Virus record (IMG/VR): IMGVR_UViG_3300034061_006011
Direction: 5' to 3' (one strand)
Source: a virus
Lineage: Duplodnaviria; Caudoviricetes
Length of the DNA: 64,000 nucleotides
A program made the translations under genes and the position numbers. Shown piece by piece: positions 2,884 through 38,417 of this stretch (positions are counted from its first letter, which is position 1; every line of letters begins with the position of its first letter). The notes under the pieces are model-generated. The model ran no database searches. It had not been told where the DNA came from and saw nothing but the letters and a program-made list of their open reading frames with translations.

Positions 2884-3369
2884 ATGATTGGATTCAAAAA
2901 ATTTATAGAAAATAAAAACCCATTTTCAGGTTTTAACAAACCGTTCCCCGGAGCTGTACAAACAAGCAGTGACACCGGATCACAAGCTGTTTCAACATTT
3001 GGATACTCTGGAAGACCGAACCACTTACCAGATTTAGACTTAGCTATAAATGATGGTGAATTTGGCATACCAGAAGTTGTAAAAGAGAAAATGGTAACTG
3101 TTTTGAATGACAAGAAAAAAATAATTGAAATTGAATTAGAAGACGGGACTAAACTTTACTTTAGTCCCGGTCAATACAGATCAATTCAAGGGGATTTGCC
3201 TATCATCCCTAATAAGACCAAGCTAAAAGTCGCTTTCCAAAGACACGGAAAGGACATTAGCTCTGATTCATCAAATATAACTCGTATAGAAGCGTCATAC
3301 TGTGGTCCTCAATATTTAAGAAACGCCTATAAAATTAAAAATGTTTCTTTCAAACCAGTACAGCTTTGA
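2884..3369 (+). CDS. Hypothetical protein with capsid-targeting-like leader (start likely MIGFKKFIE at 2884)
   Basis: ORF 2866..3369; second ATG gives MIGFKKFIENK leader. Confidence 0.6.
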   Translation: MIGFKKFIENKNPFSGFNKPFPGAVQTSSDTGSQAVSTFGYSGRPNHLPDLDLAINDGEFGIPEVVKEKMVTVLNDKKKIIEIELEDGTKLYFSPGQYRSIQGDLPIIPNKTKLKVAFQRHGKDISSDSSNITRIEASYCGPQYLRNAYKIKNVSFKPVQL

Positions 3370-3652
3370 TGGTTGATGGTTCAACCAAAACTCGTTCACG
3401 TTCAGATTCTGGTCCATAATCTGGAACAGGAACTGCGCCGCCTGAGATAACAACTCTATCACCGACATTAAAGCCATAATTTTCGGTCTTGATAGATGGA
3501 CCTACTGCCAAAACAATTGCCTGAAAATCATCTTTTTGCTTCTTGTTAGTCAAGAACAACTTTGTGTTTGCTAGTTCTTGGGTTGTCAAGAGTTCAATCA
3601 AAACCTGTGAGCCACAAGGCTTACAGCCAGTAACCTTCTTCAAATCTGCCAT
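3350..3652 (-). CDS. GroES/Cpn10-like co-chaperonin (T4 gp31-like role possible)
   Basis: KPCGSQVLIE...AIVLAVGP...FNVGDRVVI...LVEPSTIKAVL matches the Cpn10 pattern; 100 aa. Confidence 0.75.
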   Translation of the reverse strand: MADLKKVTGCKPCGSQVLIELLTTQELANTKLFLTNKKQKDDFQAIVLAVGPSIKTENYGFNVGDRVVISGGAVPVPDYGPESERERVLVEPSTIKAVLV

Positions 3653-3690: not shown

Positions 3691-4215
3691 TTAATTTGTT
3701 TTTTGTGGAGCTAAACGACAGATAAGACGTGTGCCTTCAAATTTTGGATTAGATTCTACCAAGCAAACTTCTTTACACTTTTCCAAAATTGCATTAATTT
3801 TTTCAAATCCAACTTCTTTATGTTGCATTTCTCTAGATCTAAATTTCATTGTAATTTGAACTTTTTTCTCATCTTGCAAAAATTCAACAATATGCTTGAT
3901 CTTGGTTTCTAAGTCATGTTTGCCAATAACAGGAGACAATCTAATTTCTTTTGATATTTGAGCAGTCTCTCTTTGTTTTTTATTATTTTCCTTAATCTTC
4001 ATTTTTTGTTCGTATTTATATTTTGAATAATCAAGAATATGACAAACAGGAGGAATTGCGTTTGGAACTATTTCAACAAGATCCAATCCCAAATCAAAAG
4101 CCATGTTTCGGGCTTTCTCTGTTGGCATAATGCCCAAGACTTTTCCATCTTGCATGACTCTTACTTGGGGGATACGAATCTGAAAATTTACACGCAAACG
4201 ATTAATGTCCGACAA
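3691..4215 (-). CDS. infC: Translation initiation factor IF-3 (TTG start)
   Basis: RVNFQIRIPQVRV...GLDLVEIVPNAIPPVCHILDYSKYKYE...KEIRLSPVIGKHDLETK...MKFRSRE; GGAG 7 nt upstream of TTG. Confidence 0.93.
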   Translation of the reverse strand: MSDINRLRVNFQIRIPQVRVMQDGKVLGIMPTEKARNMAFDLGLDLVEIVPNAIPPVCHILDYSKYKYEQKMKIKENNKKQRETAQISKEIRLSPVIGKHDLETKIKHIVEFLQDEKKVQITMKFRSREMQHKEVGFEKINAILEKCKEVCLVESNPKFEGTRLICRLAPQKTN

Positions 4216-6239: not shown

Positions 6240-6556
6240 TATTCATAGTCCTCATGCGCTGTAGGTGTAGACCAAGGACCATTTGGATTTTCATGAGCCA
6301 ATTGATCATATAACTTTTCGATTAAGTATTCTACCTTTTGCTCAAACCAAGCTCTCATATAAAGCTTATCCCCACGCTTATCCTTTGGTGCATCAAGTAC
6401 AACTCTGACAATATTCTTGTCATCAGTAAAATAATCATCTACAAATTTTTTCATGTAGACTGATACTTTCTGATCTTTCGCAGAAGCAACATCATTTATT
6501 TTGTTGTATAAAGATTCTGGAATACCAAAAGTGATTATTTTTTGTTTTTCGGACAT
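6239..6556 (-). CDS. Ribbon-helix-helix-like DNA-binding protein
   Basis: IITFGIPESLYNKINDVASAKDQKVSVYMKKFVDDYF fits RHH strand-helix-helix pattern. Confidence 0.5.
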   Translation of the reverse strand: MSEKQKIITFGIPESLYNKINDVASAKDQKVSVYMKKFVDDYFTDDKNIVRVVLDAPKDKRGDKLYMRAWFEQKVEYLIEKLYDQLAHENPNGPWSTPTAHEDYE

Positions 6557-6813
6557 GGCTTTTCCTTTTTGTTTTTAACAGGGAAGCTTTCTCTCATCTG
6601 ACTCTTAAGAATAGTAGCTTCCTTCTCACGCCTCTTCCTGCGTGACTTCTCTGATGGGCTTTCATATGTTTCTCTAAGCCTGTATTCACGCAAGATACCA
6701 GCCTTATTGACTGCTTGACGGAATGCACTCATCAAAGCTTTAAAAGACCTGTCACGATGATCGTCATAACCGTTGTCTCTTGAAACTACTCTAACATTTG
6801 CCTTTCGTGCCAT
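6535..6813 (-). CDS. rpsU: Ribosomal protein bS21 homolog
   Basis: FKALMSAFRQAVNKAGILREYRLRETYESPSEKSRRKR aligns to bS21 [27 protein letters not shown]. Confidence 0.85.
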   Translation of the reverse strand: MARKANVRVVSRDNGYDDHRDRSFKALMSAFRQAVNKAGILREYRLRETYESPSEKSRRKRREKEATILKSQMRESFPVKNKKEKPCPKNKK

Positions 6814-6814
6814 T

Positions 6815-7960
6815 TTATTCCTCAATCACTTTCTTTTTAATGCCTATAAACTTGGGGTGAAACTGTTTTACTCTTTCAACTATACTTGCCTGCAAATCAA
6901 CTGAATATTTATTTTTATTTTCGATATGCTTGTCAAGGTTAGTATTTACAATCTCATAAATTAATTTATCTATGAAAAATAACTTTTTATTAAGCAAACT
7001 ATAATTTAAATCGAAAAACGTAAAGACTTTAGTATCAATATTTGAATCTGTCATACATAATTCTATATCTTTTTGGTTAGAAACTACGTTAAAATTTCTT
7101 TCCGCAATACTAATACTTCTGCAACCACAATACATTGACATTGAATTAAGACCAGAAAAGAAATCAACAAATATCTTAGTTGAAAGCATATACGCCATCA
7201 CCAAAAACCAATCATCTTCTTGAACAAACAAAACATTAGGATTGTCAATAAAATCCTTAGAAATATCAAACGTCATATAATTCTTTAAAACAACACATTT
7301 AATGTTTTTAGAAGTAAAACTTTCTATCACACTTTGGTAAAAAGAAGACGATAATTTATGCAATATTACCTTACCTAAGTGCCATTGCTTGATGAATTTA
7401 AAAGGAATTATAAAAACCTTTCTTTCACCTAATTCTGAAATACTTTTAACAATACTTTGATTCAAATAATTTATATTAGGCAAATTTGATTTAACTATAT
7501 CAATAGAATTTTTACCTATATTTGATCTATTGAAGCCATTCTGAAATAAATTTGCAAATCTAGATGGGTCAATTACGTTTCTGAAAAATTCATTCAAACT
7601 TCTAAAAATGACAGTTATTGTATCTGATTTATTTAACATGCCTTCAGTTTTTTCATAAAATCTATCAATATTATCAACAGATTTCTGTGACCATACTTCA
7701 TCTGCTTGTGCAAAAAACTTAGAAAATCCTTTCCAAGTAACAATTATAATGTACTTGTCTTTAAAATTAATATCATTCTTTAAACTAGGAAATATGTAAT
7801 TTGCAAAAACTAAAAGATGACTTAATTCTGGAAATATTGGTATTACAATTATTTTTTGTAGATTATCAGGAATATTCCTTGAATCAAACTTCTCTCTAAT
7901 AAAATTACCTCTTATAGAGGCAGATTCTATAACTTCTTTTATATCAACAGCATTTACCAT
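6815..7960 (-). CDS. Divergent GT-B glycosyltransferase, GT9 (heptosyltransferase)-like
   Basis: N-domain IIIVTWKGFSKFFAQADEVW; C-domain LVMAYMLSTKIFVDFFSGLNSMSMYCGCRSISI resembles GT9 end motif but lacks canonical DSG..H. Confidence 0.45.
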   Translation of the reverse strand: MVNAVDIKEVIESASIRGNFIREKFDSRNIPDNLQKIIVIPIFPELSHLLVFANYIFPSLKNDINFKDKYIIIVTWKGFSKFFAQADEVWSQKSVDNIDRFYEKTEGMLNKSDTITVIFRSLNEFFRNVIDPSRFANLFQNGFNRSNIGKNSIDIVKSNLPNINYLNQSIVKSISELGERKVFIIPFKFIKQWHLGKVILHKLSSSFYQSVIESFTSKNIKCVVLKNYMTFDISKDFIDNPNVLFVQEDDWFLVMAYMLSTKIFVDFFSGLNSMSMYCGCRSISIAERNFNVVSNQKDIELCMTDSNIDTKVFTFFDLNYSLLNKKLFFIDKLIYEIVNTNLDKHIENKNKYSVDLQASIVERVKQFHPKFIGIKKKVIEE

Positions 7961-9992: not shown

Positions 9993-10538
9993 TCAACTAT
10001 TTGCCTTTTTCAGCAACTTGGCAGATTCCTCTGCACTTTTGTCTTTGAATTCTTTGAACCAAGAACTGTTCTTGCCATAATATCTAGTGTTTCCAATAAA
10101 AAATACATATAAAGCTTCCTTAGTTTTCTTCAAATATGACAATTTTGATATCAACTTTTCTATACTTATGTCATCATTTATCTTAAGTCCAGACCTGATT
10201 AGCAAGGTAAGTAAGCTAAATTTGATCTTAGATTTCCAAAAATCACTTAATTTTACATAAAATAAATTTTTTCTTTGAGTTAAAAATATTTTTGATTTAT
10301 TTTTTATATTCAAGTGTTTTTCTATAAATTCAAATGTATTACACAATCTTTTCTTCTTGTAAGGAGGAATACATACAATCAGATTTTTTGTATATGGAAA
10401 ATCTTCATGAAATATTTCTCTGCACTTGTAAAACTGTTCGGCAACTAAAAATCCTTTATTGTTTTTTATAGCAACACTAAAACTGTTAGGAATTTGTTTA
10501 TACGGACATAATATTGTTATTATTTTCTCTTTTTTCAT
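9993..10538 (-). CDS. Hypothetical protein
   Basis: 181 aa ORF downstream of dnaE-C, same strand. Confidence 0.5.
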   Translation of the reverse strand: MKKEKIITILCPYKQIPNSFSVAIKNNKGFLVAEQFYKCREIFHEDFPYTKNLIVCIPPYKKKRLCNTFEFIEKHLNIKNKSKIFLTQRKNLFYVKLSDFWKSKIKFSLLTLLIRSGLKINDDISIEKLISKLSYLKKTKEALYVFFIGNTRYYGKNSSWFKEFKDKSAEESAKLLKKANS

Positions 10539-10923
10539 CTTTCAATACCATCCACCTTGCATCATCTTTTGGCATATACTTTTCTTTTGTGTAAAAAAAC
10601 ATTTGTAAGAAAAAAGGATATTCTTTTATTACAATATCGTCTCTTGAAATACCAGATGTAAAATCTTTAATTATTTCTTTACACAATCTTATCGCTTCAC
10701 CCTGAGAAGCATAAGCATATTTAAACAACTTGCCAACACATTTTGCAACACTTCCAAATTCATTGCACAATAAATCAACTATCTCTTCCTTCAACTTACC
10801 CTTTTGAAAAATAGCAGAAGACTGAAATACAGCTATAACATCATTCTTCTGCTTTTTCTTTGTCCTAATATTTCTAAAATATTTATCAAAGTTTTCTTCA
10901 GTTACAATAAGTTCGTTTTGCAT
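10498..10923 (-). CDS. Hypothetical protein
   Basis: 141 aa ORF directly downstream of dnaE-C. Confidence 0.55.
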   Translation of the reverse strand: MQNELIVTEENFDKYFRNIRTKKKQKNDVIAVFQSSAIFQKGKLKEEIVDLLCNEFGSVAKCVGKLFKYAYASQGEAIRLCKEIIKDFTSGISRDDIVIKEYPFFLQMFFYTKEKYMPKDDARWMVLKDEKRENNNNIMSV

Positions 10924-10931
10924 AAAATAAA

Positions 10932-13400
10932 CTAGTTTATTAAAACAATTCTGTAATCAAGAGTGTTTGATGGCAAAAGATATCTTTTATGTTGAGGAGG
11001 AGAGTTTAAACTAAAAGTAGAAAATCCATTGGTTGGTGGAGAAACCTGTATTGATAAACAATTATTCTTTTCTAGAATATGCTTAAATATCACATAATCG
11101 TCTGCCCATACATTAATTCTTTCTATCCTAAACTCACTGTCCATGCCAATTAACTGACAATATGATTTGTTATTCTTAGAATACTTAACATTCACATCTA
11201 AAACTTCAATCTGAACATTGTGCCTGCGAACACCATTAGCATGCAATTCAATAGAATTTGCAAATGTACAACTAGGATCGTACATTTTGAATGTAGACAA
11301 TCGACAAGTAAACTGAAAACCATAATGCTTTCTTTCTGCCAAATGAATGTCGTTAAGATCAAGAATCAATTCTTTATCATCAATTGTAATTTCATCTTCA
11401 TCAAAATCATCATAACTAATCTCTACCTCGGCTGTTCCTTTCTGTGTCATCCTCTTCCATTTTTTATGCAATTTCAATACGTCTGGACTAGGATTTATAC
11501 TTGAAAGTATACCAAACAAACTTTCAGATAACTCCAAATTATAATACTTTTCTGGCAATAAACTCATAATACTTTTCTTAAGATCCAAATAACTTTTATT
11601 AGATCTTTTATTCTTGTCAATAACTTTCTTGTTCTGAAGAGAATACGCTTGCCAGAACTTGTAATCCTTCTCAGTATTGACCCCAAACACACGCAAAGGA
11701 ATCAAAGCTTTCAATACACTAGCATCCGATCCAAACCGCTGTAGAAAATCGTGTATGCCCTTATAAGGCTTCTTTAATACTATATCTCTAGCTGTATCCT
11801 CTCCAATTCCCTTAATGTTGCCAAACCCTGCATAAATCTGATTGTCTTGAATAGAAAAATTATAACTGCTTTTGTTTATGTCAACAGGATTAACAATCAC
11901 TCCATGCTTGTAAGCATCTGTAATGTAAACTCTTTTCTTCTCCTCATCCTTTTCTAACATCAGAAGAGCAGCATAAAATTCAAGCGGATAATGTGTCTTT
12001 AAATATAGTTGGCGTGATGAAACGTAAGTATAAGCTGTGGCATGACTTAGGTTGAATCCATAAGCGGCGAAAGCTTCAATTTCAGAGAAAATTTGTGCTA
12101 CTTCTTCTCTTGTTGCTTCAAGTACATGGATGCCGTTTTCAATAAACTGTTCTTTATATTTTATAAAGCTTGATATTTTTTTCTTTGAAATGGCTTTTCT
12201 GATTGTTTCGCAGTCTTTGAGTGGAATTTTACCAACTACGTTAAGGATTCTCATAACTTGTTCTTGGTAGACAATAATTCCATATGTAGAAGAAAGAATT
12301 GGTGCAAGAGCGGGATGAAGTGTGTATTCTTCTTGTTTTGTTTTTCTTCTAATGAATACTTTATCCATTTCTGCGTTAAGCGGACCCGGACGATACAAAC
12401 TGACGATTGCTACTAAGTCATTAAAACTATCGATCCCAGAGGCTTTTACGACCTCTCTAATGCCACTGCTATCATACTGGAACACACCAATAAGATCTGC
12501 GTCATTAGCATTTGCTATTGATTTTGGATCATTCAGATAAGATATATCATCCCAATCTTCATTATTGCCTGAAATGAATTTTACATTATGTCTTTCTTTT
12601 ACCATCTTTGCAGTATATGCCATTTGTTCTAAAGCACTAATTACCAACAAATCAAATTTTACAAGACCAAGCGGTCCAAGTTCTTGTGTCGCTAATCCTT
12701 CAACAAATTGTGATACTAAGTGATCACCACCAGTAGTTTTCATTAAGGGAACGAATTTGTTAATTTCATCTCTGCATATAATAACACCACCAGCATGTTT
12801 GCCTGTATTTCTAATTCTATGAAGCAACTTTTGAACTGCTAATGCTAATTCTGGATATTTTCCAAGATATGATTTTAATTCAGGAAAAGTATCAACAGCT
12901 TCCTCATAAGTCAATTCATCCCCATCTTCATCTCTCATCCTTAAATTCTTAGTAATATTTAAAACTTCATTTCTGTCTAATCCATATATTCTCGCCATGT
13001 CAATCATGGCGCTCTTAAGAGCATATCTTCCATAAGTTCCGATTGAACAAGTATTTACAGCTTTGTATTCACTAGGTGCGTATGTATTTTTAAGATAATC
13101 TCTAACATCTGCTATAAAGTCAATATCAACGTCTGGAAATTCATTTGTTTTTGTTTTAGGCATTTCGTTTATGTTAAATTCATCACATATTCCGAGAAGA
13201 ACTGGAACAAGGAGATTGTTTTCATTGGGTAATTTCTTTTTTTGTCTTACGAGGTCGATGAAATAATCGCAGCAATTTTGTGTTTCAATTTCAATTAATT
13301 CATATCTGAGCCTGAACTTATGTTCTGGATCATTGCAAAAAGGAAATTTGTTAAACTGATGTTTGATCAGTTTTGTAAAATTTTCAATTGTAATGCTCAT
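10932..13400 (-). CDS. dnaE: DNA polymerase III alpha (DnaE), C-terminal polymerase/HhH/OB part of a split gene
   Basis: FPDVDIDF, GKHAGGV, GLVKFDLL, GVFQYDS, LYRPGP, IIVYQEQVM, AYGFNLSHA, GFGNIKGIG. Confidence 0.92.
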   Translation of the reverse strand: MSITIENFTKLIKHQFNKFPFCNDPEHKFRLRYELIEIETQNCCDYFIDLVRQKKKLPNENNLLVPVLLGICDEFNINEMPKTKTNEFPDVDIDFIADVRDYLKNTYAPSEYKAVNTCSIGTYGRYALKSAMIDMARIYGLDRNEVLNITKNLRMRDEDGDELTYEEAVDTFPELKSYLGKYPELALAVQKLLHRIRNTGKHAGGVIICRDEINKFVPLMKTTGGDHLVSQFVEGLATQELGPLGLVKFDLLVISALEQMAYTAKMVKERHNVKFISGNNEDWDDISYLNDPKSIANANDADLIGVFQYDSSGIREVVKASGIDSFNDLVAIVSLYRPGPLNAEMDKVFIRRKTKQEEYTLHPALAPILSSTYGIIVYQEQVMRILNVVGKIPLKDCETIRKAISKKKISSFIKYKEQFIENGIHVLEATREEVAQIFSEIEAFAAYGFNLSHATAYTYVSSRQLYLKTHYPLEFYAALLMLEKDEEKKRVYITDAYKHGVIVNPVDINKSSYNFSIQDNQIYAGFGNIKGIGEDTARDIVLKKPYKGIHDFLQRFGSDASVLKALIPLRVFGVNTEKDYKFWQAYSLQNKKVIDKNKRSNKSYLDLKKSIMSLLPEKYYNLELSESLFGILSSINPSPDVLKLHKKWKRMTQKGTAEVEISYDDFDEDEITIDDKELILDLNDIHLAERKHYGFQFTCRLSTFKMYDPSCTFANSIELHANGVRRHNVQIEVLDVNVKYSKNNKSYCQLIGMDSEFRIERINVWADDYVIFKHILEKNNCLSIQVSPPTNGFSTFSLNSPPQHKRYLLPSNTLDYRIVLIN

Positions 13401-13406
13401 ATAGGT

Positions 13407-13435
13407 ATTTTACTAGATTTGGTTGTAAAAATCAA
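13407..13435 (-). promoter_or_regulatory. Sigma70-type promoter, near-leaderless start of dnaE-C
   Basis: TTGATT-17 nt-TAAAAT, 6 nt to ATG at 13400. Confidence 0.6.
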
Positions 13436-13468
13436 ACGAAAATCGTAAATAAAGCATAGAGGTGAACA

Positions 13469-13762
13469 ATGGCAAAAAAAATTAAATCATTAGCTGCTTA
13501 TAAAAAAGATTTAGAAATCAGTGATTCTCGTAAGAAAATGCAAGACATCATGAAAAGTTATGCTTTTCCTGATCCGAATGCACCAGAAGACACATTTGTC
13601 AAAGGTAAGCATTACGGTTTCCCACTACAAGGCAAAAAGAGTTTGCCCTATAGAGCTAAAGGTTATAACACAGATAAGCCTTTTGGCGATTTAGGAACAC
13701 CAAGTATTGATTTTTCAAAGACAAGTAAATTTGATGACTATGAAGTTAGCCACTTGGACTAA
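13469..13762 (+). CDS. Hypothetical protein
   Basis: GAGGTG RBS and TAAATA box (13446-13451) upstream. Confidence 0.65.
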   Translation: MAKKIKSLAAYKKDLEISDSRKKMQDIMKSYAFPDPNAPEDTFVKGKHYGFPLQGKKSLPYRAKGYNTDKPFGDLGTPSIDFSKTSKFDDYEVSHLD

Positions 13763-13764
13763 AA

Positions 13765-15117
13765 ATGATGAACTTTAAATCTTGGTTAATTTTATCTGAA
13801 ACAATAACGGTCAAGGACCAAGAATTTCGTGAGCCATTGACTGCATTGAAACACATACAAGAAACTCATCCAAATCCAGAAAATCTTGTTGTTACGTTTA
13901 CAATGATTGATAAAGTTGGCATCAATCCAAAAAGTAAATACGATACGCCTCTTGGCATTTACTTTTATCCAATAGATTTTGTCATTGAAAAGAAAATGAA
14001 TGTTCCATTTGCTGGAGAACAACCTTATCTTAATGTTTGCGAGTTTACAAGACCAGAAAAAATATTACACATGACTTCTGATATAAATAATCAGAAAGGA
14101 TTGGATTTACTTAATGTGTTTGCAAAAGAAGAAGTTGATCTTGCAATAGAACGCCTTGAGAACAATTATGAATTGCGTAGTAATTATTCTAAATTATGGC
14201 TTGTGACCAGAGAAATGGCATTCCATAAACCTGTTTTATGGAATGCTAATTTAAGAAAATGTGAGATTGATGGATTTGTAGATCATAATACTAAAACAAT
14301 TCATGAAAACGAACCAACTCAAGGTGTTGTTTTTACTGGTACTGCGTTGAGAAGGATACTTGTGATTCCACAAATATTGAGGAAGCCATTACCTGATATA
14401 AACAAAATTCCTTTGAACCAACTTGAAAAATTGTTAAAAAATAGAAATTTGTTTAATAATGATATTCAAAAATTTCTTGATGACGCAGAAAACAAAGATG
14501 AAATAGCAAGAATTATAATTCAATATAAACCAGAATTGTCTAATGACGATATTTCTACTTTGCTTTATTATGCAGAAAATAAAGATGAAATAGCAAGAAT
14601 ATTGGGTTCAGACAATATTAATAAATTATCTGATGATGATATTTATAGTTTGCTTAGACTTACAAAAAACAAAGATGAAATGGCAGGAATATTTTCATCA
14701 GACAATATTAATAAATTATCTGGTGATCATGTTTATAACTTGCTTATTTATACAAAAAACAAAGGTCAAATGGCAAGAATATTAGGTCCAGACAATATTA
14801 ATAAATTAACTGCTAAAAATGTTTCTGATTTGCTTCATTATGCATCTAACAAAAATAAAATGGCAGAAATGGCAGAAATATTAGGTCCAGAAAATATTAA
14901 TAAATTAACTAATAGTGATGTTTATAGTTTGCTTCGTAATGCATATGACATAGAAGAAATGGCAAGAATATTAGGTAAAGAAAATATTGATAAACTAAAT
15001 TCTGATAATGTTTATAATTTGCTTCATTATGCATCTAACAAAAATAAAATGAGACAAATCTTAAGAAAGTATTACACAGGAACAAATCCAGAAGTAATTT
15101 CTTTACTCAAACAATAA
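13765..15117 (+). CDS. Putative ADP-ribosyltransferase-fold protein with ~30-aa helical repeats; capsid-targeting-like leader
   Basis: MMNFKSWLILSE; TPLGIYFYP, PYLNV, EIDGFVD, IHENEPTQGVVF shared with 51182..52624. Confidence 0.45.
   Translation: MMNFKSWLILSETITVKDQEFREPLTALKHIQETHPNPENLVVTFTMIDKVGINPKSKYDTPLGIYFYPIDFVIEKKMNVPFAGEQPYLNVCEFTRPEKILHMTSDINNQKGLDLLNVFAKEEVDLAIERLENNYELRSNYSKLWLVTREMAFHKPVLWNANLRKCEIDGFVDHNTKTIHENEPTQGVVFTGTALRRILVIPQILRKPLPDINKIPLNQLEKLLKNRNLFNNDIQKFLDDAENKDEIARIIIQYKPELSNDDISTLLYYAENKDEIARILGSDNINKLSDDDIYSLLRLTKNKDEMAGIFSSDNINKLSGDHVYNLLIYTKNKGQMARILGPDNINKLTAKNVSDLLHYASNKNKMAEMAEILGPENINKLTNSDVYSLLRNAYDIEEMARILGKENIDKLNSDNVYNLLHYASNKNKMRQILRKYYTGTNPEVISLLKQ
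14491..15060 (+). repeat. Coding tandem repeat, about 90 bp / 30 aa unit, 6-7 copies
   Basis: Units such as NKDEIARILGSDNINKLSDDDIYSLLRLTK and NKGQMARILGPDNINKLTAKNVSDLLHYAS; DNA repeats gcaagaatattaggt and gacaatattaataaatt. Confidence 0.9.
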
Positions 15118-15124
15118 ATAAACA

Positions 15125-16468
15125 TCAAGATTGACTAAACTTCAGTACAGCTTGACTACCTCTATTCTCTGAGAGGAATCTAGAGAACAGTAGGTCATGT
15201 CTGATTGGATCTACGTCAGTAACACCAAGTAAATATAAGACGAGAGAACCAGCACCAGAACCTCGACCGGGTCCAACCGCATAAACACCATCCAAACCAG
15301 TAATCTCATGACTAATTCTCCTAGCTTCATCAGTAAAACTTTTAACAATTAAAAAGTAAGATGAAAATTGCTTTCTAAAAATCAAATCTAATTCTTCTAA
15401 TATTCTCTTGAAATAAACATCATTAGTTTTACTAATCCCTCTCTTCTTCAAACCTTGCATTACTAATTCTTTCAATTTCTCCTCTTCATCAATAATCTTA
15501 GGCAATTTAACACTTCTATCCAACTTAACATTCTCTGCCATACGACATATCTTAACAGTATTCATCTTGGCTTGTTCAAATATCTCCAAAGGAATTACAT
15601 CAGAATATTTCTCAAGCCACTTCTTGTTCATTTCATCTTCAGTCTTCATCCAAAGGTTTCTATCCTGCAATTCAAAAACATCAGCATTTTCTGACTTCAA
15701 CTTTTCAATTTCAGCTAATGTTCTCTTAGTGTTAACCAACATCATTATTGTCTGATACTTGCTATCTTCCTCATATGCATAATGAACATCATTGCTCATA
15801 ATCATAGGAATGCCATGCTTAAGATGCATTTCTACTAAAAATTGGTCATAACCTCTCTGATACTCAAAATCAAGCAACATCATTTCAAGATAAAAGTTAT
15901 CACCAAACATATCCTTGTATTTCAGAACCATTTCTTCTGCTTTTTCTTTTCCATATAGCTTCAAAGCTCTTGCTGCTTCTGAAGCGCAACAACAACTAGT
16001 AAAGATTATACCTTCTCTGTGTTTCTTTAATAATTCATGATTAACTCTAGGTTTCCTATAAAAACCTTGTGACCAACCAAGGCTACAAAGTTTAGTTAAG
16101 TTTTCGTAACCTTTGTTTGAAACGGCAATGGCTAATATATGACTTGATGTTTTGAATGCTTCGTATTGATCAGGAGAAAGACTCTTTATGAAGTTATTTC
16201 TTTCTTCTTCGTTCTCAGTTGCTTCTGTGTGAATAGGATTAACGTAAAGCTCGCAGCCAAAAACTGGCTTAAACTTCTTTTTATCAAATTGTTCTGTTTG
16301 TGAGATTAGACTTGGGATTGATGCCATGAGTCCATGATCGGTAACACAAAGGTAATCACCATGTGTGCTCCATCTGTCGCAATATTCTAAAATTTTCCCA
16401 AAACCGTCAAGGATACTGTATTCGCTGTGTAAATGCAAATGTTCAAAGCCAACAATATTCATGTGCAT
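15125..16468 (-). CDS. dnaE: DNA polymerase III alpha (DnaE), N-terminal PHP part of a split gene
   Basis: HLHLHSEYSILDG, VTDHG, GCELY, SHIL, NDVHY, GPGRGSGAGSLVLYLLGVTDVDPIRHDLLFSRFLSENR then stop. Confidence 0.92.
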   Translation of the reverse strand: MHMNIVGFEHLHLHSEYSILDGFGKILEYCDRWSTHGDYLCVTDHGLMASIPSLISQTEQFDKKKFKPVFGCELYVNPIHTEATENEEERNNFIKSLSPDQYEAFKTSSHILAIAVSNKGYENLTKLCSLGWSQGFYRKPRVNHELLKKHREGIIFTSCCCASEAARALKLYGKEKAEEMVLKYKDMFGDNFYLEMMLLDFEYQRGYDQFLVEMHLKHGIPMIMSNDVHYAYEEDSKYQTIMMLVNTKRTLAEIEKLKSENADVFELQDRNLWMKTEDEMNKKWLEKYSDVIPLEIFEQAKMNTVKICRMAENVKLDRSVKLPKIIDEEEKLKELVMQGLKKRGISKTNDVYFKRILEELDLIFRKQFSSYFLIVKSFTDEARRISHEITGLDGVYAVGPGRGSGAGSLVLYLLGVTDVDPIRHDLLFSRFLSENRGSQAVLKFSQS

Positions 16469-16504
16469 AGCTCTTCCTTGCTAACAACAAATTACCTCCA
16501 CATT

Positions 16505-16759
16505 TTAACAAATGGAGGTGTTTTGTACCAGACTTCTTTTGTATTGATCTTCTAATAAGAACAAAGATTCACGAAGACGATGAACTTCTTTATTCAATCT
16601 TTCGATTGTCATTTGTTGTAAAGAATCAATAGATTGAAGTTCTTCGTTGTGTTTTTTGAGATGTTGTATTTGATTAAACATTTCAAGAGGACTTTGTTTA
16701 ATCAAAATAGAAATGTCTTGAGTATCATTCATAATAATCATCTTTCCTATCAAGTACAC
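16505..16759 (-). CDS. Hypothetical coiled-coil protein
   Basis: Heptad-rich 84 aa ORF upstream of dnaE-N; start uncertain. Confidence 0.45.
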   Translation of the reverse strand: MYLIGKMIIMNDTQDISILIKQSPLEMFNQIQHLKKHNEELQSIDSLQQMTIERLNKEVHRLRESLFLLEDQYKRSLVQNTSIC

Positions 16760-16837
16760 TAAAGTATACCATAAACATAATAAACATAAAAGTCAAATTT
16801 AAAAATGCAAAATATTCAATTGTTTCGTTTAACATTT

Positions 16838-17578
16838 TTAAACCTTTACCACTCCAAGCATGCGATTTCTTACATCCCGCCAACCAATCATATTAGGAAC
16901 TTCAAAGTCACCATTTCTTACCAATAGCAAGCCGTTTTCTTTAACAGCGCCCATGATTTTGTTAATATCAAATTTATATTTGTTCATATCCCAGAATATT
17001 ATTTTATATTTTTTTTCAGGTTCAAGTTCTGTTGTAAGCTTCATGCTATGTTGAAACATATGTTTATTTTCTAGAACATAATCATCAAGAACTAATGTTT
17101 CTGTTTCATCTTCTGTGAAGAAAAATGACCATATATAACCAAATGGCATATTGCCATATTGGTCACTAAGTCTATAGTAGTGTGGCGATTTGTTTGTGTA
17201 ATAAAAATGCCACTCATCTTTAAAAAATTCTTTTAAATTAATTTTCTCATAATTTCTTAGAACCAAATCAGTATCAGTATCAAATTTCAATGGAGACTCT
17301 GAAAAAGCACCTTTGACCAACATGCTTTCACAATATTTTTTAATATAATTGTTTACATAATCAATATTTTTGATTAATTCTTCATCACAAAACACATTAA
17401 AAAAACATCTTTTTTGAATAATAGACTTTAAAAAACATGTATTAGCAAGAGATCTGTCTCCGAATAAAAATATTTTAACATTTTTATCTTCCAGACTGTT
17501 ATCAAATTTAGAATACCATTTACCGAATGGTAAGCCGGGTGCATTTTGAAAAACGAATCTTAAAGCTGGTTGACTCAT
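16838..17578 (-). CDS. Hypothetical protein translationally coupled to spoVR
   Basis: ATG overlaps spoVR TGA (ATGA). Confidence 0.6.
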   Translation of the reverse strand: MSQPALRFVFQNAPGLPFGKWYSKFDNSLEDKNVKIFLFGDRSLANTCFLKSIIQKRCFFNVFCDEELIKNIDYVNNYIKKYCESMLVKGAFSESPLKFDTDTDLVLRNYEKINLKEFFKDEWHFYYTNKSPHYYRLSDQYGNMPFGYIWSFFFTEDETETLVLDDYVLENKHMFQHSMKLTTELEPEKKYKIIFWDMNKYKFDINKIMGAVKENGLLLVRNGDFEVPNMIGWRDVRNRMLGVVKV

Positions 17579-19170
17579 AGCCGCATCAATTGCTCCCTAC
17601 TAATCGTCTTGGGATCAGCAAGCGAATAGTCACCATTCATATCTTGACAATAATAAAACACTTCATCATTATTGTGATTGATTGTTTGCAATGCTACAGG
17701 TTGTCTCATTAAAAGGCAAATAGATTTAATTACTTCATAAGCATATGGTTTATACAATTCTAAACCATCAGAATAATGTTGTATAAAGAAAATATTCCCT
17801 TTAAAATTAGGTTCAACTAATTTAATGTTTGGCAATCCTCTATTGATATGTTTCTTAAGAAGATTCTTTTTAATCTTCTTGTAATCATGACTTTCAATCT
17901 TAACTTCACCAGTTGGATATCTTTTATATTCAAAGAACTCATTCTTTTCACAAAAATCTTTAGTAAAGAATTCATTAATTAACTGAAAATCATCATAGTT
18001 TTTGCAAACTTCAAACACCTTTTCTTTACCTAATCCTAATTTTTGATCCCAATTTTCTTTAAGTAATGGATCTGTGCAAGATTCATATTCGCTTCCGAAT
18101 CTGCCTTTGTTCCATCTTTCTTCAATATCCATCAAAAGAGTAAAGCCAAGTTTATATGGATTGGTGCTATATTTGCCTCCAAGCACACCTGCTTTATGAA
18201 TTGAATATTCAACAATCCCAGCGTCTTCTGCTTCTTGTCCAAGGCTGCAATAGCCTTGTTTAGCAATAATATTGTAGTCTGTCCATGAGGCTAGACCTTC
18301 GTTGCATACTTTAGTTTTACCTTGTGGGCTAAAATAAATTGCTTCGTTGTAAAGAATTTCTGCAATATCTCGTTGCCAAGGTTTGAATGGTGCGTTTTCT
18401 TTAATATACCCAAATACATCAGATTCTGGGTTAGCCATCATATTCAGATCATTTAATATTTCTCGTTCTTCAATTTTTGTATTTTGAGCATTAATAAATT
18501 CTTTTGTATTGATCCAGTCTTCCATGTAATCATTTTTTGTTTTAATTCTTCTTGGGAAAGAGTATTCTCTTTTATCTGTGATTACAACTTCTTTAGCTTT
18601 TCTTTCTTTCCAAATATTCATTGGATCGACAAGTGTTTCAAGACGCATTAAATTATCAATAAATTCTGTAACAGTTTCTCTTCCATATCGAGACATGTAT
18701 TTTCTTACATTAGATCCATTGTTGGCAAGTTCATTATGAGCATTCGTATTAGTTCTAGAAAAATGAATGTTATTCTTGAAGAAATGAACATGCCCAAGAG
18801 CATGAGCAATAACCGTAATATTATCAAGAATTGTGTTTGAATTTAGACAATATAGATATGATGGATTACAGTTGATAACCATTTCATATATTCTATGGTT
18901 GCCGTGCAGATAACCACGTTGCATTTCTTCGTATTCAGCGCCAAACTTCCAATGTGGATATCTTACTGCAAATCCACCATAGCTTGCAACTTCACTCATT
19001 TCATCATGAGAAAGCATTTGTACAATGGTTGGATAAAAATCAAGACCAAAATCTTTACAAGCTTTAAAAATGGTAGGGATATGTTTCTGTAGTTCTTCTG
19101 GAATTGGCACACCGGGGGTGGTTGCTGATCCAAACAGAACAGGTGAACCAAATAAGAATTTATCACTCAT
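17575..19170 (-). CDS. spoVR: SpoVR/YcgB family protein
   Basis: RYPHWKFG, IYEMVINCNP, VIAHALGHVHFFKNN, YFSPQGKTKVCNEGLAS, NPYKLG. Confidence 0.93.
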   Translation of the reverse strand: MSDKFLFGSPVLFGSATTPGVPIPEELQKHIPTIFKACKDFGLDFYPTIVQMLSHDEMSEVASYGGFAVRYPHWKFGAEYEEMQRGYLHGNHRIYEMVINCNPSYLYCLNSNTILDNITVIAHALGHVHFFKNNIHFSRTNTNAHNELANNGSNVRKYMSRYGRETVTEFIDNLMRLETLVDPMNIWKERKAKEVVITDKREYSFPRRIKTKNDYMEDWINTKEFINAQNTKIEEREILNDLNMMANPESDVFGYIKENAPFKPWQRDIAEILYNEAIYFSPQGKTKVCNEGLASWTDYNIIAKQGYCSLGQEAEDAGIVEYSIHKAGVLGGKYSTNPYKLGFTLLMDIEERWNKGRFGSEYESCTDPLLKENWDQKLGLGKEKVFEVCKNYDDFQLINEFFTKDFCEKNEFFEYKRYPTGEVKIESHDYKKIKKNLLKKHINRGLPNIKLVEPNFKGNIFFIQHYSDGLELYKPYAYEVIKSICLLMRQPVALQTINHNNDEVFYYCQDMNGDYSLADPKTISREQLMRL

Positions 19171-19172
19171 TT

Positions 19173-20363
19173 TTAAAATGTCCTATCCGCACTTGTGAAC
19201 GGATTTCCAAGAATTTCTCTAATAGCACCTAGTATTGCTTCGTTCCGTTTTTCTTCATCCTTAAGAACACCATGCGGAATTTCTGTGACAATCACATTAT
19301 CTCCTAATGTTCCTTCTATAATTTCTTTTTCCACTGCTTCTGCAACAGTTCCTTTATAAGTGTACGAACCAATTTGTGTTATAGAAGCCAAGTTGACTAT
19401 ATTTTGAGGAAATTCCTTTTTCAGCAGAGACACAAACTTTTCATTATCATTATCATAATTTTCACCATCTGTGAAATAAAAGAAATAGATGTTCCAATTG
19501 TTAGGAGGAAATCTATTCTCAAATTGTTTTGCAACTAGATCTAAAGCTGTAGAACATGTGGTGCCGCCACCGTTTCTTATCCTATAGAAGTCCTTTGCAT
19601 CTACTTCGTGAGCAGCAACGTCATGCCAAACATAAAGTCTTTCGACTCTTTGATAAAAACTTCTGATATAAGTGTCGATCCAATAAGCCATATCAGACAC
19701 AACAGAAACTTTATTATCATCCATTGATCCGCTAGCATCTCTAGCAAAGATAACAACTGCGTTGCTTGAAGGAAAGACAATTTCGTTATATTGTCTGTAC
19801 CTTTTGTCACTATTAATAGGATTAATCATCCTGACTTTATCTTTAAAGCCGGGAATTTCGTACATTTCGTTGATTTCGCCAGTGCCACAAAGACGTTTCA
19901 AAGCCTGAAGCATTGTTCTGCGAGTGTGACGAAGAGATTCTGGACCAACAAGAGAAATGTTATTATATTTGATTTTTACATCTTCAAGATTGGCATTTTC
20001 TTTTGGTTTGATATCAGGAAGACTGAGTTCTTCTTTCATGAAATGAAGAATGTCTTCCATGTCTAGCTGGACGATGATGCCTTCGCTTTCATCTTGTCCA
20101 GCACCATTACCATTTCCTTTTGGTCCACCATCTTTACCGATGGTGTCGCCATCTTTGCCATCTCCACGCCCAACACCATTAGGATTCCTACCATGAAGAA
20201 AATGAGGAATGTCAATTGATGGTATTTTGATTGAAACTTTACCGTTTTTACCACGGTGGCGAAATACTTCGCCACTCTTGATAAACTTCTTCAAGTTTTT
20301 TCTGATTCTACCGCTGACAATATCTCTAAAGTCTTTATGGTCGGAATCAATCCTTCTTGGCAT
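19173..20363 (-). CDS. yeaH: YeaH/YhbH (DUF444) vWA-type protein
   Basis: GDGKDGD Gly-rich region, RYRQY, FARDASGSM, GGGTTCS, FTDGEN. Confidence 0.9.
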   Translation of the reverse strand: MPRRIDSDHKDFRDIVSGRIRKNLKKFIKSGEVFRHRGKNGKVSIKIPSIDIPHFLHGRNPNGVGRGDGKDGDTIGKDGGPKGNGNGAGQDESEGIIVQLDMEDILHFMKEELSLPDIKPKENANLEDVKIKYNNISLVGPESLRHTRRTMLQALKRLCGTGEINEMYEIPGFKDKVRMINPINSDKRYRQYNEIVFPSSNAVVIFARDASGSMDDNKVSVVSDMAYWIDTYIRSFYQRVERLYVWHDVAAHEVDAKDFYRIRNGGGTTCSTALDLVAKQFENRFPPNNWNIYFFYFTDGENYDNDNEKFVSLLKKEFPQNIVNLASITQIGSYTYKGTVAEAVEKEIIEGTLGDNVIVTEIPHGVLKDEEKRNEAILGAIREILGNPFTSADRTF

Positions 20364-20378
20364 TGATGTCCCCTTAAA

Positions 20379-22454
20379 TTAGAATAGGTCTTCTGCTAAA
20401 TCGCCTCTTGCAAAAATACTGCTTACATAATCAAGCACATCTGTTGCGCTCTGCTCATTATAACCATATTTTTCAACAAGTCTTTGCTTGACCGCATCAA
20501 TCTTCTTTTGAACATCTGGGTCAACTGTTGTTGCTCCAGATGAAAATGCACTCAATTTAATGTGATCTTTTGTATCCTCAAACAACTTTGATTCCAAAGC
20601 TTTCTTGAGAAGAGGGTTGCTATCCCATCTGAAAGTCTTACCTTTTACTGCAAGATCGCCAATAAAGGCTGCAATCATACGCCGGAAATCATCACAAGTA
20701 GATTCTGGAACATCAATCTTGCTCTCAATAGATCGCATTAGCTTTTCATCTGGACTTTCTTCTCGTCCAGTAATCTTATTGGTAATTCTTGCTTTATTGA
20801 TGTAAGCCATCAAATTGTCGATATAATTTGCACAAAGCCTGACAATTGCCTCTTCATCTCCCACAAGAGCCTTTTGAACTTCGTTCTTAAGAATGTCATC
20901 AAGCTTCTTAGTTGCAAGAGTAATGCAGTTTTGATACTTGCGTACCAAATCTTTGTTAGAAATAAGAGAATGATTCTCAAGTCCACTCTTCAAAGCATTC
21001 AGCACCATGAATGGATTAATATAATCATGTCTGCTTGATAAGGTAGAAGAAATCTTGTCCTGTACATATCTTGCAGACATGCCAGTCATACCTTCATTTG
21101 GGTTCTTATCCTTAATCTCTCTAACTCTATCAATTGTCCATCCGGGCAACATCTTTCCATCATAGAGGTCTGCTTTTTCTGTCAAAGTGATCTTATTGTC
21201 CTTGTCATCTTCAAGCCTTGTAAGGACTGAAAACAGTGCAGCAATCTGTAATGTGTGAGGAGCGATATGCTGCTTGATCTTATTTGAATTATAATCTTGT
21301 TCTAATACTTTGAGTTCCTTGCTCCATTCTAGGAGATAAGGAATTTCGATTCTTACAGTTCTGTCCTTCAAAGCTTCCATGTACTGATTGTTCTTTAACT
21401 TTTCGTATTCAGGAATATTGGTATGTCCGATGATAGCTTCATCAATGCTAATCTGAGAAAACTTTTTAGGCTTAATTGACTTTTCTTGTGATGCTCCAAG
21501 AAGATCGTACAAGAAAGCTGTTTCAAGCTTTAGCATTTCAATAAATTCGATAACTCCACGATTTGCAACGCAGAATTCACCATCGAAATTAAATGTTCTT
21601 GGATCAGAATCACTTCCAAATGTTGGAAGTAGAGCAAAATTGATATCACCAGTAAGTTCTGTGCTATCTTGATTCTTTTCATCTTTAGGCTGGAAAGAAG
21701 CAATACCAACTCTATCTGCTTCAGAATATTGTTTTCTGACAACAACAATGTGGTTATTTACAACTTTAACCCAATCTCCATTGTACATCTTGAGCAATTT
21801 GTCAAAGAAAAACTTACATTTTGGATTAATTTCACCTTCTACATTGAGGCTGTAGAGAGTTGTTCTTTGTGATGGATCAGCATTATCCCTATGAATCTTA
21901 TTCAATTCCTCAAGTACTTGCTTTCTTACTGCAAGAGGAAGAAGTTTGATTGGATCTTCGTTCATTGGGCATTCACAAGTGTCGCTTGTGTAGAAGCCAT
22001 TTTGTCCTGTTGGCAGATTGACCCACTTGTAGGAATACCAAGCGCCATTTTCAGTCTTGGAATAATCTTCCATATTACGCTTGATTAATCGGCAAATAGT
22101 AGACTTAGCAGAACCTACAGGTCCGCATAGAAGAAGGATTCTTTTTTCTGGACCGTAATGTCCTGCGGCACCCTTGAAATGAGCAACCAAAGACTCAAGC
22201 TGATCTTCGATACCAAAAACTTTAATTTCTTCATGATTTTCAAAAAATTTATAGGTTACGATCTTCTTGCGATACTTGTCAATTTCTTCTGTTCCGAATG
22301 AAGTGATCATGTCGTAAATTCTTTGATGAGAATTACGAGCTAATTTTGGATTACTGTAACATCTGTTAAGATATTCTTCAAAACCAAGCTCTTCATGGAG
22401 CTTCTTATAATCATCAAGATTGTTGTTATTAGCAAACTGTGTCAAACTAACCAT
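20379..22454 (-). CDS. prkA: PrkA/YeaG family AAA+ serine kinase/ATPase
   Basis: LLLCGPVGSAKST Walker A, CPMNEDP, QDSTELTGDI, FDGEFCVANRGVIEFIEMLK, EALKDR, GMSARY. Confidence 0.95.
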   Translation of the reverse strand: MVSLTQFANNNNLDDYKKLHEELGFEEYLNRCYSNPKLARNSHQRIYDMITSFGTEEIDKYRKKIVTYKFFENHEEIKVFGIEDQLESLVAHFKGAAGHYGPEKRILLLCGPVGSAKSTICRLIKRNMEDYSKTENGAWYSYKWVNLPTGQNGFYTSDTCECPMNEDPIKLLPLAVRKQVLEELNKIHRDNADPSQRTTLYSLNVEGEINPKCKFFFDKLLKMYNGDWVKVVNNHIVVVRKQYSEADRVGIASFQPKDEKNQDSTELTGDINFALLPTFGSDSDPRTFNFDGEFCVANRGVIEFIEMLKLETAFLYDLLGASQEKSIKPKKFSQISIDEAIIGHTNIPEYEKLKNNQYMEALKDRTVRIEIPYLLEWSKELKVLEQDYNSNKIKQHIAPHTLQIAALFSVLTRLEDDKDNKITLTEKADLYDGKMLPGWTIDRVREIKDKNPNEGMTGMSARYVQDKISSTLSSRHDYINPFMVLNALKSGLENHSLISNKDLVRKYQNCITLATKKLDDILKNEVQKALVGDEEAIVRLCANYIDNLMAYINKARITNKITGREESPDEKLMRSIESKIDVPESTCDDFRRMIAAFIGDLAVKGKTFRWDSNPLLKKALESKLFEDTKDHIKLSAFSSGATTVDPDVQKKIDAVKQRLVEKYGYNEQSATDVLDYVSSIFARGDLAEDLF

Positions 22455-24186: not shown

Positions 24187-24315
24187 ATGAAAACATTTAT
24201 CACATTGGTAGTGGCTTTTGTTTTAGGTTTTTTTGTTGGTGTAACTTCAACAATCATTGGACAGTTTCACTACTGCCCATTTGTTAAAGCAAAACTCATC
24301 CATAAGCATGAATGA
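24187..24315 (+). CDS. Small single-pass membrane protein (42 aa, absent from ORF track)
   Basis: GGAGG RBS; MKTFITLVVAFVLGFFVGVTSTIIGQFHYCPFVKAKLIHKHE. Confidence 0.55.
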   Translation: MKTFITLVVAFVLGFFVGVTSTIIGQFHYCPFVKAKLIHKHE

Positions 24316-25666: not shown

Positions 25667-25700
25667 GAAGTAAATATAGTTAAAGAAACTAAAGGAAAAT

Positions 25701-37935: not shown

Positions 37936-38417
37936 CGACCTTCCAACCTATAAACTCCTCGTTTAACCTTAGAACAGATATAACCATCTGATTCCAATTC
38001 TTGACGAGCTAGTTTGAAATTATTGTTCAAACCCGGAATAGAATAATTTAAACTTGAAAACATTTTACATATTTCAGAAAAAGAAATTTCTTTATTGTCA
38101 ATAATACGTTCTTTAATCTTTTCTCTAATATAACGAGAAGATTTGTCTTTTGTTGCGTTCTTTTCAAGAACAGCAACATCAGTCCCAAATCCTTCAGTTG
38201 CATTCTTGACATAATTAGAATCACAAAATATATTTGCGATTTCTTCAAGACCAACTGCGTTTTCAGCTTCATTAGCCTTGAGTGCTTCAACTTTAATGTT
38301 AAAACACTCAATGAATTCTGATAAAGACAACAAATTGTTATAGCCTGTGACTATATTTTTGCCATCTGGACACTTAAGCATGACATAATCTGGAGTCATA
38401 GTATCTCCTAAAATCAA
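37932..38417 (-). CDS. Hypothetical protein, possible C-terminal winged helix
   Basis: Directly downstream of recA; SFSEIC...ARQELESDGYICSKVKRGVYRL. Confidence 0.5.
   Translation of the reverse strand: MILGDTMTPDYVMLKCPDGKNIVTGYNNLLSLSEFIECFNIKVEALKANEAENAVGLEEIANIFCDSNYVKNATEGFGTDVAVLEKNATKDKSSRYIREKIKERIIDNKEISFSEICKMFSSLNYSIPGLNNNFKLARQELESDGYICSKVKRGVYRLEGR

Follow-up and report, generated by a model that had tools for sequence, protein, structure and literature searches.

Known split DnaE enzymes

Replicative C-family DNA polymerases are treated as single chains, and the established natural splits of dnaE that we found are ones that inteins re-ligate. We analyzed a 64,000-nucleotide (nt) stretch of DNA from a virus of the class Caudoviricetes (IMG/VR record IMGVR_UViG_3300034061_006011), here called the window. 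In the window, as in its relatives, the DnaE catalytic chain is encoded as two polypeptides, which we call the N-half and the C-half. Judged from sequence, the two halves probably form an obligate two-subunit replicative polymerase of the C family with a composite active site. The phage that encodes them appears to be a huge freshwater phage.

A split of a related kind is known from the group 2.2 (T4-like) jumbo phages. The available text of Iyer et al. (2021, PMC7824862) describes a minimal DNA polymerase III (Pol III) alpha that is split into a nucleoside triphosphate (NTP)-binding protein and a Mg2+/template-binding protein. The two proteins are predicted to reconstitute one enzyme. Like the pair in the window, this enzyme is inteinless, and the break lies between the NTP-binding and metal-binding palm subdomains. 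The two systems differ in other respects. The jumbo-phage enzyme (PMC7824862) is PHP-less and minimal, being reduced to the core nucleotidyltransferase and template-binding domains. It is encoded by widely separated genes in phages that also have a family B polymerase. The enzyme in the window is full-length (PHP, palm, thumb, fingers, HhH, and OB), and its halves lie near each other and in order. The window has a family A-like polymerase gene and not a family B gene. The halves in the window also appear to carry degenerate copies of each other's junction, whereas no overlap is described in the available text of Iyer et al. (PMC7824862).

Cyanobacterial DnaE is also encoded by two genes, but it is split at a different site and its genes are at far-apart loci. 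Its parts are made into one chain by split-intein trans-splicing (Wu et al. 1998; Caspi et al. 2003, as covered in the available text of PMC2677866). The "fractured genes" of marine metagenomes include three dnaE loci (Dassa et al. 2009, PMC2677866). They resemble the locus in the window in having adjacent halves, a free-standing gene between the halves, and an origin in phage-like environmental DNA. Unlike it, they are split at other sites and encode split-intein halves with all HINT motifs, and the gene between them is a homing endonuclease gene (PMC2677866).

The only cases mentioned in the available parts of surveys on C-family polymerases from bacteria and viruses are splits by inteins and fragments that are treated as errors. 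In a marine jumbo-phage study, PF07733 marks the cluster with the largest genomes, and the available part of that study does not mention a split. We found no description of a full-length inteinless DnaE split in the literature searched, coverage of which was incomplete, and a prior description is possible.

The split dnaE of Bacillus phage KLEB27-3 was considered as the same phenomenon and rejected. It is cut at another site, and an HNH endonuclease gene lies between its parts. Other split genes are found in T4-like phages. The nrdA gene of Aeromonas phage Aeh1 is split by mobE, and the T4 topoisomerase is split between genes 39 and 60. In both cases, inserted DNA interrupts an essential enzyme, the parts of which work as separate polypeptides. 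Those splits are recent, lineage restricted, and tied to homing endonucleases, whereas the split described here is ancient and clade-wide by its distribution. We know of no reciprocal duplicated overlap for the Aeh1 nrdA or T4 39/60 splits.

Gene layout and position of the cut

The dnaE N-half gene is at positions 15125 to 16468 on the minus strand and encodes 447 amino acids (aa). It contains the PHP domain, the nucleotide-binding half of the palm, and an 11-aa C-terminal tail. The protein matched PF02811 with an E value of 5e-36. The dnaE C-half gene is at positions 10932 to 13400 on the minus strand and encodes 822 aa. It contains an N-terminal extension, the metal-binding half of the palm, the thumb, the fingers, the HhH domain, and a C-terminal OB fold. 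The protein matched PF17657 (E = 2e-40) and PF14579 (HHH_6; E = 7e-15). Both proteins matched PF07733, and the model positions abut across the halves. The N-half covers positions 1 to 100 (E = 2e-28) and the C-half covers positions 97 to 259. The same arrangement is seen with phrog_405, a profile of full-length phage DnaE, in which the N-half covers positions 39 to 439 and the C-half covers positions 441 to 1054.

An initial annotation of this DNA had proposed two dnaE genes about 1.7 kb apart with two antisense genes between them. The open reading frames (ORFs) agree with this. The space between the halves is 1,724 nt and is filled by two plus-strand genes. The N-half was said to end at FSRFLSENR plus 10 residues. 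It does end in this way, but the tail has 11 residues.

The closest deposited relative is LR756511.1, an uncultured phage of 595 kb with an intact DnaE of 1,179 aa. The N-half aligned with residues 1 to 433 of that protein at 50% identity. The C-half aligned from residue 435 at 40% identity, starting at C-half residue 87. The alignments leave nothing out, so the cut is clean and nothing was lost. It falls between FSRFLSxxR and PDVDxDF, with R436 of the N-half on one side and P89 of the C-half on the other. This is between the R390 region and D401 of the Escherichia coli enzyme. The LR756511-like intact enzymes have the same domain order and, at these identities, are the closest single-chain homologs. 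They are one polypeptide, read FSRFLSK(A/F)RKDYPD(V/A)DVDF across the junction, and contain neither the tail nor the extension.

Active-site residues of the two halves

Residue conservation was counted in alignments of 60 sequences of each half. E. coli numbering was obtained by way of the Salmonella enzyme. The N-half encodes a PHP domain, in which the initial annotation had recognized all of the metal-ligand motifs. In the 60 N-halves, each of the nine ligands (H12, H14, D21, H45, E73, H110, C160, D227, and H229) is either invariant or conserved in at least 90% of the sequences. The N-half also contains the Gly-Ser motif GPGRGS at residues 399 to 404 (positions 15257 to 15274, minus strand). 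It maps to E. coli G359 to S364, and its G399, R402, G403, and S404 are invariant. R430 is also invariant. Together, R402, G403, S404, and R430 correspond to E. coli R362, G363, S364, and R390. In Pol III alpha structures these four residues grip the incoming triphosphate.

The C-half contains the catalytic strand PDVDIDF at residues 89 to 95 (positions 13116 to 13136, minus strand). P89, D90, D92, and D94 are invariant in it. The third catalytic Asp (D250) and a Lys (K248) are in a KFD motif at positions 12651 to 12659 on the minus strand, and both are invariant. D90, D92, and D94 correspond to E. coli D401, D403, and D405, and K248 and D250 correspond to K553 and D555.

The palm site (the Gly-Ser loop and the three catalytic Asp residues) is complete, but it is divided over two chains. 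The invariant half-sites on each protein indicate that selection keeps the nucleotide-binding half on one and the metal-binding half on the other. A heteromeric polymerase was among the readings offered by the initial annotation, and these invariant residues favor it. In such an enzyme, two separately translated subunits would assemble noncovalently. The N-half would bring the PHP 3'-5' exonuclease and the triphosphate-binding half of the palm, with its Gly-Ser loop and Arg. The C-half would bring the three catalytic carboxylates, the thumb, the fingers, the HhH domain, and the OB fold. The two proteins would be a natural system for studying communication between the catalytic module of Pol III alpha and its PHP/nucleotide-binding module, and a ready-made pair for split-polymerase engineering.

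Absence of a joining mechanism

No intein or HINT family was found in either half at E values up to 0.01 or in the extension at E values up to 10. The same library scans detected PF14890 in the true inteins of relatives. On the N side of the junction, an invariant Gly follows R436. The C side reads (G)EF-PD, with P89 invariant. The residues needed for splicing (a Cys, Ser, or Ala as first residue, His-Asn, and a Cys, Ser, or Thr nucleophile) are absent from the junctions. The family scans and the junction residues thus agree with the initial annotation, which had seen no intein. A search for Rfam introns in positions 10000 to 17500 at E values up to 1 found none and returned one chance-level match to a long noncoding RNA. 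No homing endonuclease family was found in the two proteins encoded between the halves with Pfam and PHROGs sequence scans.

It is very unlikely that the halves are joined into a single DnaE chain by a split intein, by trans-splicing, or by removal of an intron that holds the antisense genes. Split inteins do join the cyanobacterial and "fractured" metagenomic dnaE products (PMC2677866), and relatives of this phage have classical inteins elsewhere in the C-half. The scans of the window contained none of the corresponding families, splicing residues, or introns. Both the tail and the extension show conservation at the protein level, and the ATG at which the extension begins is itself conserved, which argues that both are translated. 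The content of the gap also varies among relatives, from 0.34 to about 8 kb and with genes on both strands.

The classical inteins of the relatives were retrieved at the fingers motif GFNK/SHA, between the Lys and the Ser. They are present in L008 (5929 to 9993) and in many C-half homologs of 1,240 to 1,340 aa. They begin with Ser1 and end with Asn, and Ser is at position +1. Some contain LAGLIDADG or Hom_end domains. The cyanobacterial dnaE split site is presumably this same fingers motif. Inteinless fission and true inteins coexist within one gene family.

Duplicated junction

The N-terminal extension of the C-half is residues 1 to 88 (positions 13137 to 13400, minus strand). The initial annotation had described about 85 residues before PDVDIDF as a degenerate copy of the region before the junction, with GPGRGS lost. 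The layout of the C-half is as described, but the exact count is 88, with PDVDIDF starting at residue 89. The proposed homology is borne out by profile comparison. A profile of 120 extensions aligned with a profile of the 110 pre-junction residues of the N-half with an hhalign probability of 92% and an E value of 6.9e-7. The two profiles align collinearly, in the register first proposed, with the GPGRGS loop deleted from the extension.

Searches against family profiles gave the same assignment. The extension of the window alone matched positions 340 to 385 of phrog_405 (E = 0.0099). PF07733 was matched individually by 11 of 60 extensions, and no other family recurred as often. Extensions of early-branching members matched PF07733 too, one at positions 5 to 89 (E = 2.3e-5; 24.6 bits against a cutoff of 23.9) and another with an E value of 6.5e-4. 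The copy is less worn in the early-branching members, where LLGIT.IDP is still readable. BLASTP carried the C-half alignment back across residues 308 to 425 of the intact DnaE of a Rhizobium phage. A profile search of the PDB with the extension matched mostly E. coli alpha 311 to 346, with an E value of about 0.6. BLASTP of the two junction copies of the window against each other gave no alignment, which indicates that the extension copy here is highly diverged. A Pfam scan of the extension of the window alone found no family.

The extension has its own invariant residues, E34, F47, N59, N62, and L69, across 60 sequences with extension identities down to 31%. In the four nearest relatives, the extension is 97, 95, 78, and 77% identical, compared with 83, 81, 75, and 73% for the whole C-half. 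By these alignments, the extension is a diverged but conserved copy of the pre-junction palm helices and is not decaying.

The N-half has a C-terminal tail, GSQAVLKFSQS, at positions 15128 to 15160 on the minus strand. Over 121 N-halves the consensus is R-G-G-K/R-Q/S-h-K-L-R/K-F, and R436, G437, and F444 are invariant. Intact enzymes read R-x-x-x-P-D-h-D-h-D-F at this position, and the DnaE of a Gordonia phage reads RGGFPDIDIDL. The tail looks like a copy of the catalytic PDxDxDF strand in which Asp was changed to Lys or Arg. This assignment is drawn from its position and its alternating hydrophobic pattern. The tail is presumed to be a second conserved degenerate copy, which goes beyond the initial annotation.

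Degenerate overlapping copies on both sides of a cut are expected from duplication and complementary loss and not from a simple insertion. The fission probably began when about 100 codons around the junction, or the whole gene, were duplicated. Complementary loss from the two copies would then have followed. The N-half would have retained a mutated Asp strand as its tail, and the C-half would have retained mutated pre-junction helices as its extension. Both relics are most likely docking or stabilizing elements now. Their conservation suggests that they were recruited as an assembly interface. Reciprocal junction copies of this kind would be a rare molecular fossil of a gene that split through duplication and complementary degeneration.

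The tail and the extension may instead be slowly decaying relics with no role in assembly, on an enzyme that is still an obligate heterodimer. Both are degenerate compared with their originals, and the two copies of the window are unmatched by BLASTP. We consider this explanation unlikely. The extension matches the rest of the protein in conservation, and its invariant residues are kept down to 31% identity. It is also kept in 232 clusters with no truncated form, and the tail motif is likewise fixed.

Distribution in huge phages and in lake water

The same split, which the initial annotation had proposed looking for in related phages, is present in hundreds of huge-phage contigs. The exact 822-aa C-half was found on seven contigs, the longest of which is 237,814 bp. 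The 90% cluster of the C-half contains 37 members from NCBI, JGI, ENA, and Logan. The best 120 of 7,900 C-half homologs are all of the split form. They are 820 to 910 aa with 96 to 100% coverage, including the extension, or are of this form plus an intein. The best 120 N-half homologs listed are free-standing genes of 404 to 487 aa on contigs of up to 670 kb.

The extension profile retrieved 232 representatives of clusters at 50% identity, 119 of them with E values up to 1e-10. The extension is nearly always residues 1 to 88 of a protein of 800 to 950 aa, or of 1,240 to 1,340 aa with an intein. Among the 232 clusters, none had the extension in the middle of a fused DnaE, and none had it truncated. 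Members of the clade can be recognized simply by the 88-residue extension. A real feature would be lost if annotation pipelines "repaired" such fragments. One protein with the extension, P0320 (611 aa), has a circularly permuted YpsA/SLOG domain (PF12694, E = 1e-29) that is fused, or was mis-called as fused, before the extension.

In every examined contig with both halves, the N-half is upstream of the C-half on the same strand, and the gap is 0.34 to about 8 kb. In L006 (76% identity), the gap is 342 nt and contains only the small antisense gene. In L003 (73% identity), it contains a gene for a 588-aa repeat protein and the small gene. In L004 (59% identity), it contains a 387-aa gene on the same strand and the small gene. 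A 670-kb contig (43% identity) has five genes between the halves, and three IMG/VR records have gaps of 7 to 8 kb. By this spread, the split is ancient and is not special to this genome but common to a large clade of huge phages that has been sampled globally.

No second dnaE was found in the window or in four related partial viral records, each of which contains a single copy of the two parts. G001 (91 kb), the nearest record, lacks dnaE. An apparent full-length dnaE in G005 was rejected. It is a C-half with an intein, and its extension had aligned with the Pfam model.

The DNA itself is present in independent samples. At least 16 lake-water metagenome runs from different studies (2020 to 2025) hold at least half of the sampled words of positions 12800 to 15800. 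Contigs from four of the runs tile positions 12800 to 14728 and 15072 to 15800. The reference-type pieces have no differences, and contigs from variant strains are also present. The tiled stretches include the ends of both genes and the intergenic regions. Among the contigs of the four lake runs, none joins the two halves. Positions 14729 to 15071, which are the repeat zone of the 450-aa gene between the halves, were fragmented in the lake contigs, with variants in repeat number.

An assembly artifact or a decaying pseudogene is extremely improbable as an explanation of the locus. The repeat zone of the gap gene is hard to assemble, as seen in the fragmented contigs over positions 14729 to 15071 and in a run of Ns in L003. 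The junctions, however, are tiled by four runs of different studies, and identical proteins are on several assemblies. Both ORFs are intact and strongly conserved over hundreds of clusters. The initial annotation had itself named misassembly as one outcome that would overturn it, and the lake contigs do not bear misassembly out as the cause.

Structural models and the role of the extension

Each half was modeled as a monomer with AlphaFold2. The N-half model has a mean predicted local distance difference test (pLDDT) score of 87, and its tail at residues 435 to 447 is below 50. The C-half model has a pLDDT of 85. The catalytic strand at residues 84 to 95 is below 50 in it. The low confidence of the tail and the catalytic strand in the monomer models suggests that the junction elements cannot be placed without the partner, which fits a two-subunit enzyme. 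The C-half model matched Pol III alpha 4iqj_A (Z score 23.0; root mean square deviation [rmsd] of 11.8 A over 605 residues) and Pol III alpha 2hnh (Z score 22.1; rmsd of 6.6 A over 483 residues). C-half residues 705 to 822 matched OB folds with a Z score of about 9 and an rmsd of about 2.5 A over about 90 residues.

Some of the results weigh against an obligate pair with a composite site or against the proposed origin of its junction. The extension is confidently folded within the C-half monomer model, as a helical bundle with pLDDT values of 80 to 92. Alignments with 5fku_A and 5fkv_A place the extension over the native pre-junction palm region. They start at model residue 1, which falls at residue 284 or 285 of E. 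coli alpha, and have a high rmsd. An extension that spans the native palm position would be consistent with completion of the C-half palm in cis. In one early-branching relative, the 4.8 kb upstream and the 10 kb downstream of the C-half contain no N-half. The reading of the tail as a strand uses a nine-residue pattern without statistical support.

These results raise the possibility that the halves are independent. The C-half would then be a stand-alone polymerase with a palm completed in cis by the extension, and the N-half would be a free PHP 3'-5' proofreader that acts in trans. A loop with the invariant Asn59 and Asn62 (Asn-x-x-Asn) would replace the Gly-Ser loop. The folded bundle and the two structural alignments are consistent with this arrangement, as are the conservation of the extension and its own invariant residues. 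So is the finding that the partners can be many kilobases apart or not nearby. Exonuclease activity is known for the PHP domains of other DnaE enzymes (PMC11348249). An independent C-half would be a C-family polymerase with a re-invented triphosphate site, and the N-half might also serve the family A-like polymerase.

We regard independent halves as possible but doubtful. The invariant GPGRGS and Arg of the N-half, across a divergence to about 50% identity, would be unexplained if that segment were unused. The Gly-Ser motif, a defining feature of the Pol-beta-like nucleotidyltransferase site, is missing from the extension. The catalytic strand is also the least confident part of the C-half monomer model. 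The two-subunit enzyme with a composite site is favored on this evidence.

Phylogeny of split and intact forms

A maximum-likelihood tree was made from the 500 residues after the junction. It contained 61 split sequences, 10 intact huge-phage sequences, and 7 outgroup sequences. The split forms and the LR756511-like intact forms grouped with a support of 100. The intact forms were a clade (support of 100) nested within the split forms behind nodes with supports of 96, 97, and 88. They encode DnaE proteins of 1,177 to 1,194 aa and come from phages of 587 to 623 kb (L001, 6699 to 10238; P0421 to P0436). The approximately unbiased test did not reject a single split clade (P = 0.082; P = 0.145 with one intact sequence). 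From the tree, the intact LR756511-like DnaE may have arisen by precise re-fusion of the halves.

Expression signals and genes between the halves

The C-half and the small antisense gene share a divergent control region of 68 nt (positions 13401 to 13468). It contains a sigma-70-like promoter of the C-half, TTGATT-17-TAAAAT, at positions 13407 to 13435 on the minus strand. The site ends 6 nt before the ATG. The initial annotation had assigned the C-half its own promoter. The site is present as described. Both hexamers are unchanged in four relatives with protein identities as low as 59%, and so is the distance of 6 to 7 nt to the ATG. The site did not stand out from chance in scans. A promoter consensus scan found 30 sites where 27.8 were expected, and TTGATT-N16-18-TANAAT was unenriched in the window (2 found and 1.5 expected). 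The spacer varies among the relatives while the hexamers and the distance are conserved, which supports a real promoter.

No Shine-Dalgarno sequence was found before the C-half. With the -10 element 6 nt from the ATG, this suggests that the C-half mRNA is leaderless or nearly so. The N-half has an AGGA-type ribosome-binding site. In the proposed history, the C-half gained its own conserved promoter, and the gap turned into a variable site for accessory genes.

The gap contains two genes in the window. The small antisense gene, which is divergent from the C-half, is at positions 13469 to 13762 on the plus strand and encodes 97 aa. Homologs are at the same place in L003, L004, and L006. The second antisense gene is at positions 13765 to 15117 on the plus strand and encodes a 450-aa cargo protein with the leader MNFKSWLILSE and tandem repeats of about 34 aa. 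The number of repeats varies between samples. Neither protein matched a family in Pfam or PHROGs. The 450-aa protein was considered as an ART-PolyVal ADP-ribosyltransferase from ESM Atlas matches (0.89 to 0.90). This assignment was rejected, as Pfam did not support it at E values up to 5.

The 450-aa gene is absent in L006, and other genes with an MNFK leader replace it in L003 and L004. The gap genes of the window (13765 to 15117, plus strand), L003 (4715 to 6481, minus strand), and L004 (5348 to 6511, plus strand) encode unrelated main domains with the common leader MNFK-x-W-x-x-L-x-E. In other lake strains, position 15125 is followed by a further gene, with MNFKKWLNE. The common leader is similar to a targeting or processing signal and might mark proteins that are packaged in the capsid.

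Other genes in the window

The family A-like DNA polymerase gene, which gives the phage a second, short polymerase, is at positions 47344 to 48663 on the minus strand and encodes 439 aa. It matched only positions 105 to 379 of PF00476 (E = 7e-27). The gene is also present in the early-branching L016. An antisense gene (49170 to 49874) and two unassigned minus-strand ORFs are upstream of it. The surrounding replication module encodes a RecA-like protein (38414 to 39616), a gp32-like protein (42123 to 43070), a DnaB-like protein (45202 to 46734), and a UvsW-like protein (53757 to 55175).

The window also contains minus-strand genes for the chaperone Cpn10/GroES (3350 to 3652) and for two translation-related proteins, IF3 (3691 to 4215) and ribosomal protein bS21 (6535 to 6825). 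These genes are syntenic in L003 and L004. A PrkA-DUF444-SpoVR triad is directly upstream of the N-half region (17575 to 22454, minus strand) and is conserved in relatives. This module is associated with stress and sporulation in bacteria. A PfkB kinase fused to a cytidylyltransferase (HldE-like) is encoded at positions 24296 to 25708 on the minus strand. A homolog of the plant-type reversibly glycosylated polypeptide is encoded at positions 62844 to 63812 on the plus strand (PF03214, E = 5e-43). The PF03214 and HldE-like proteins are sugar-nucleotide enzymes, which are unusual in phages.

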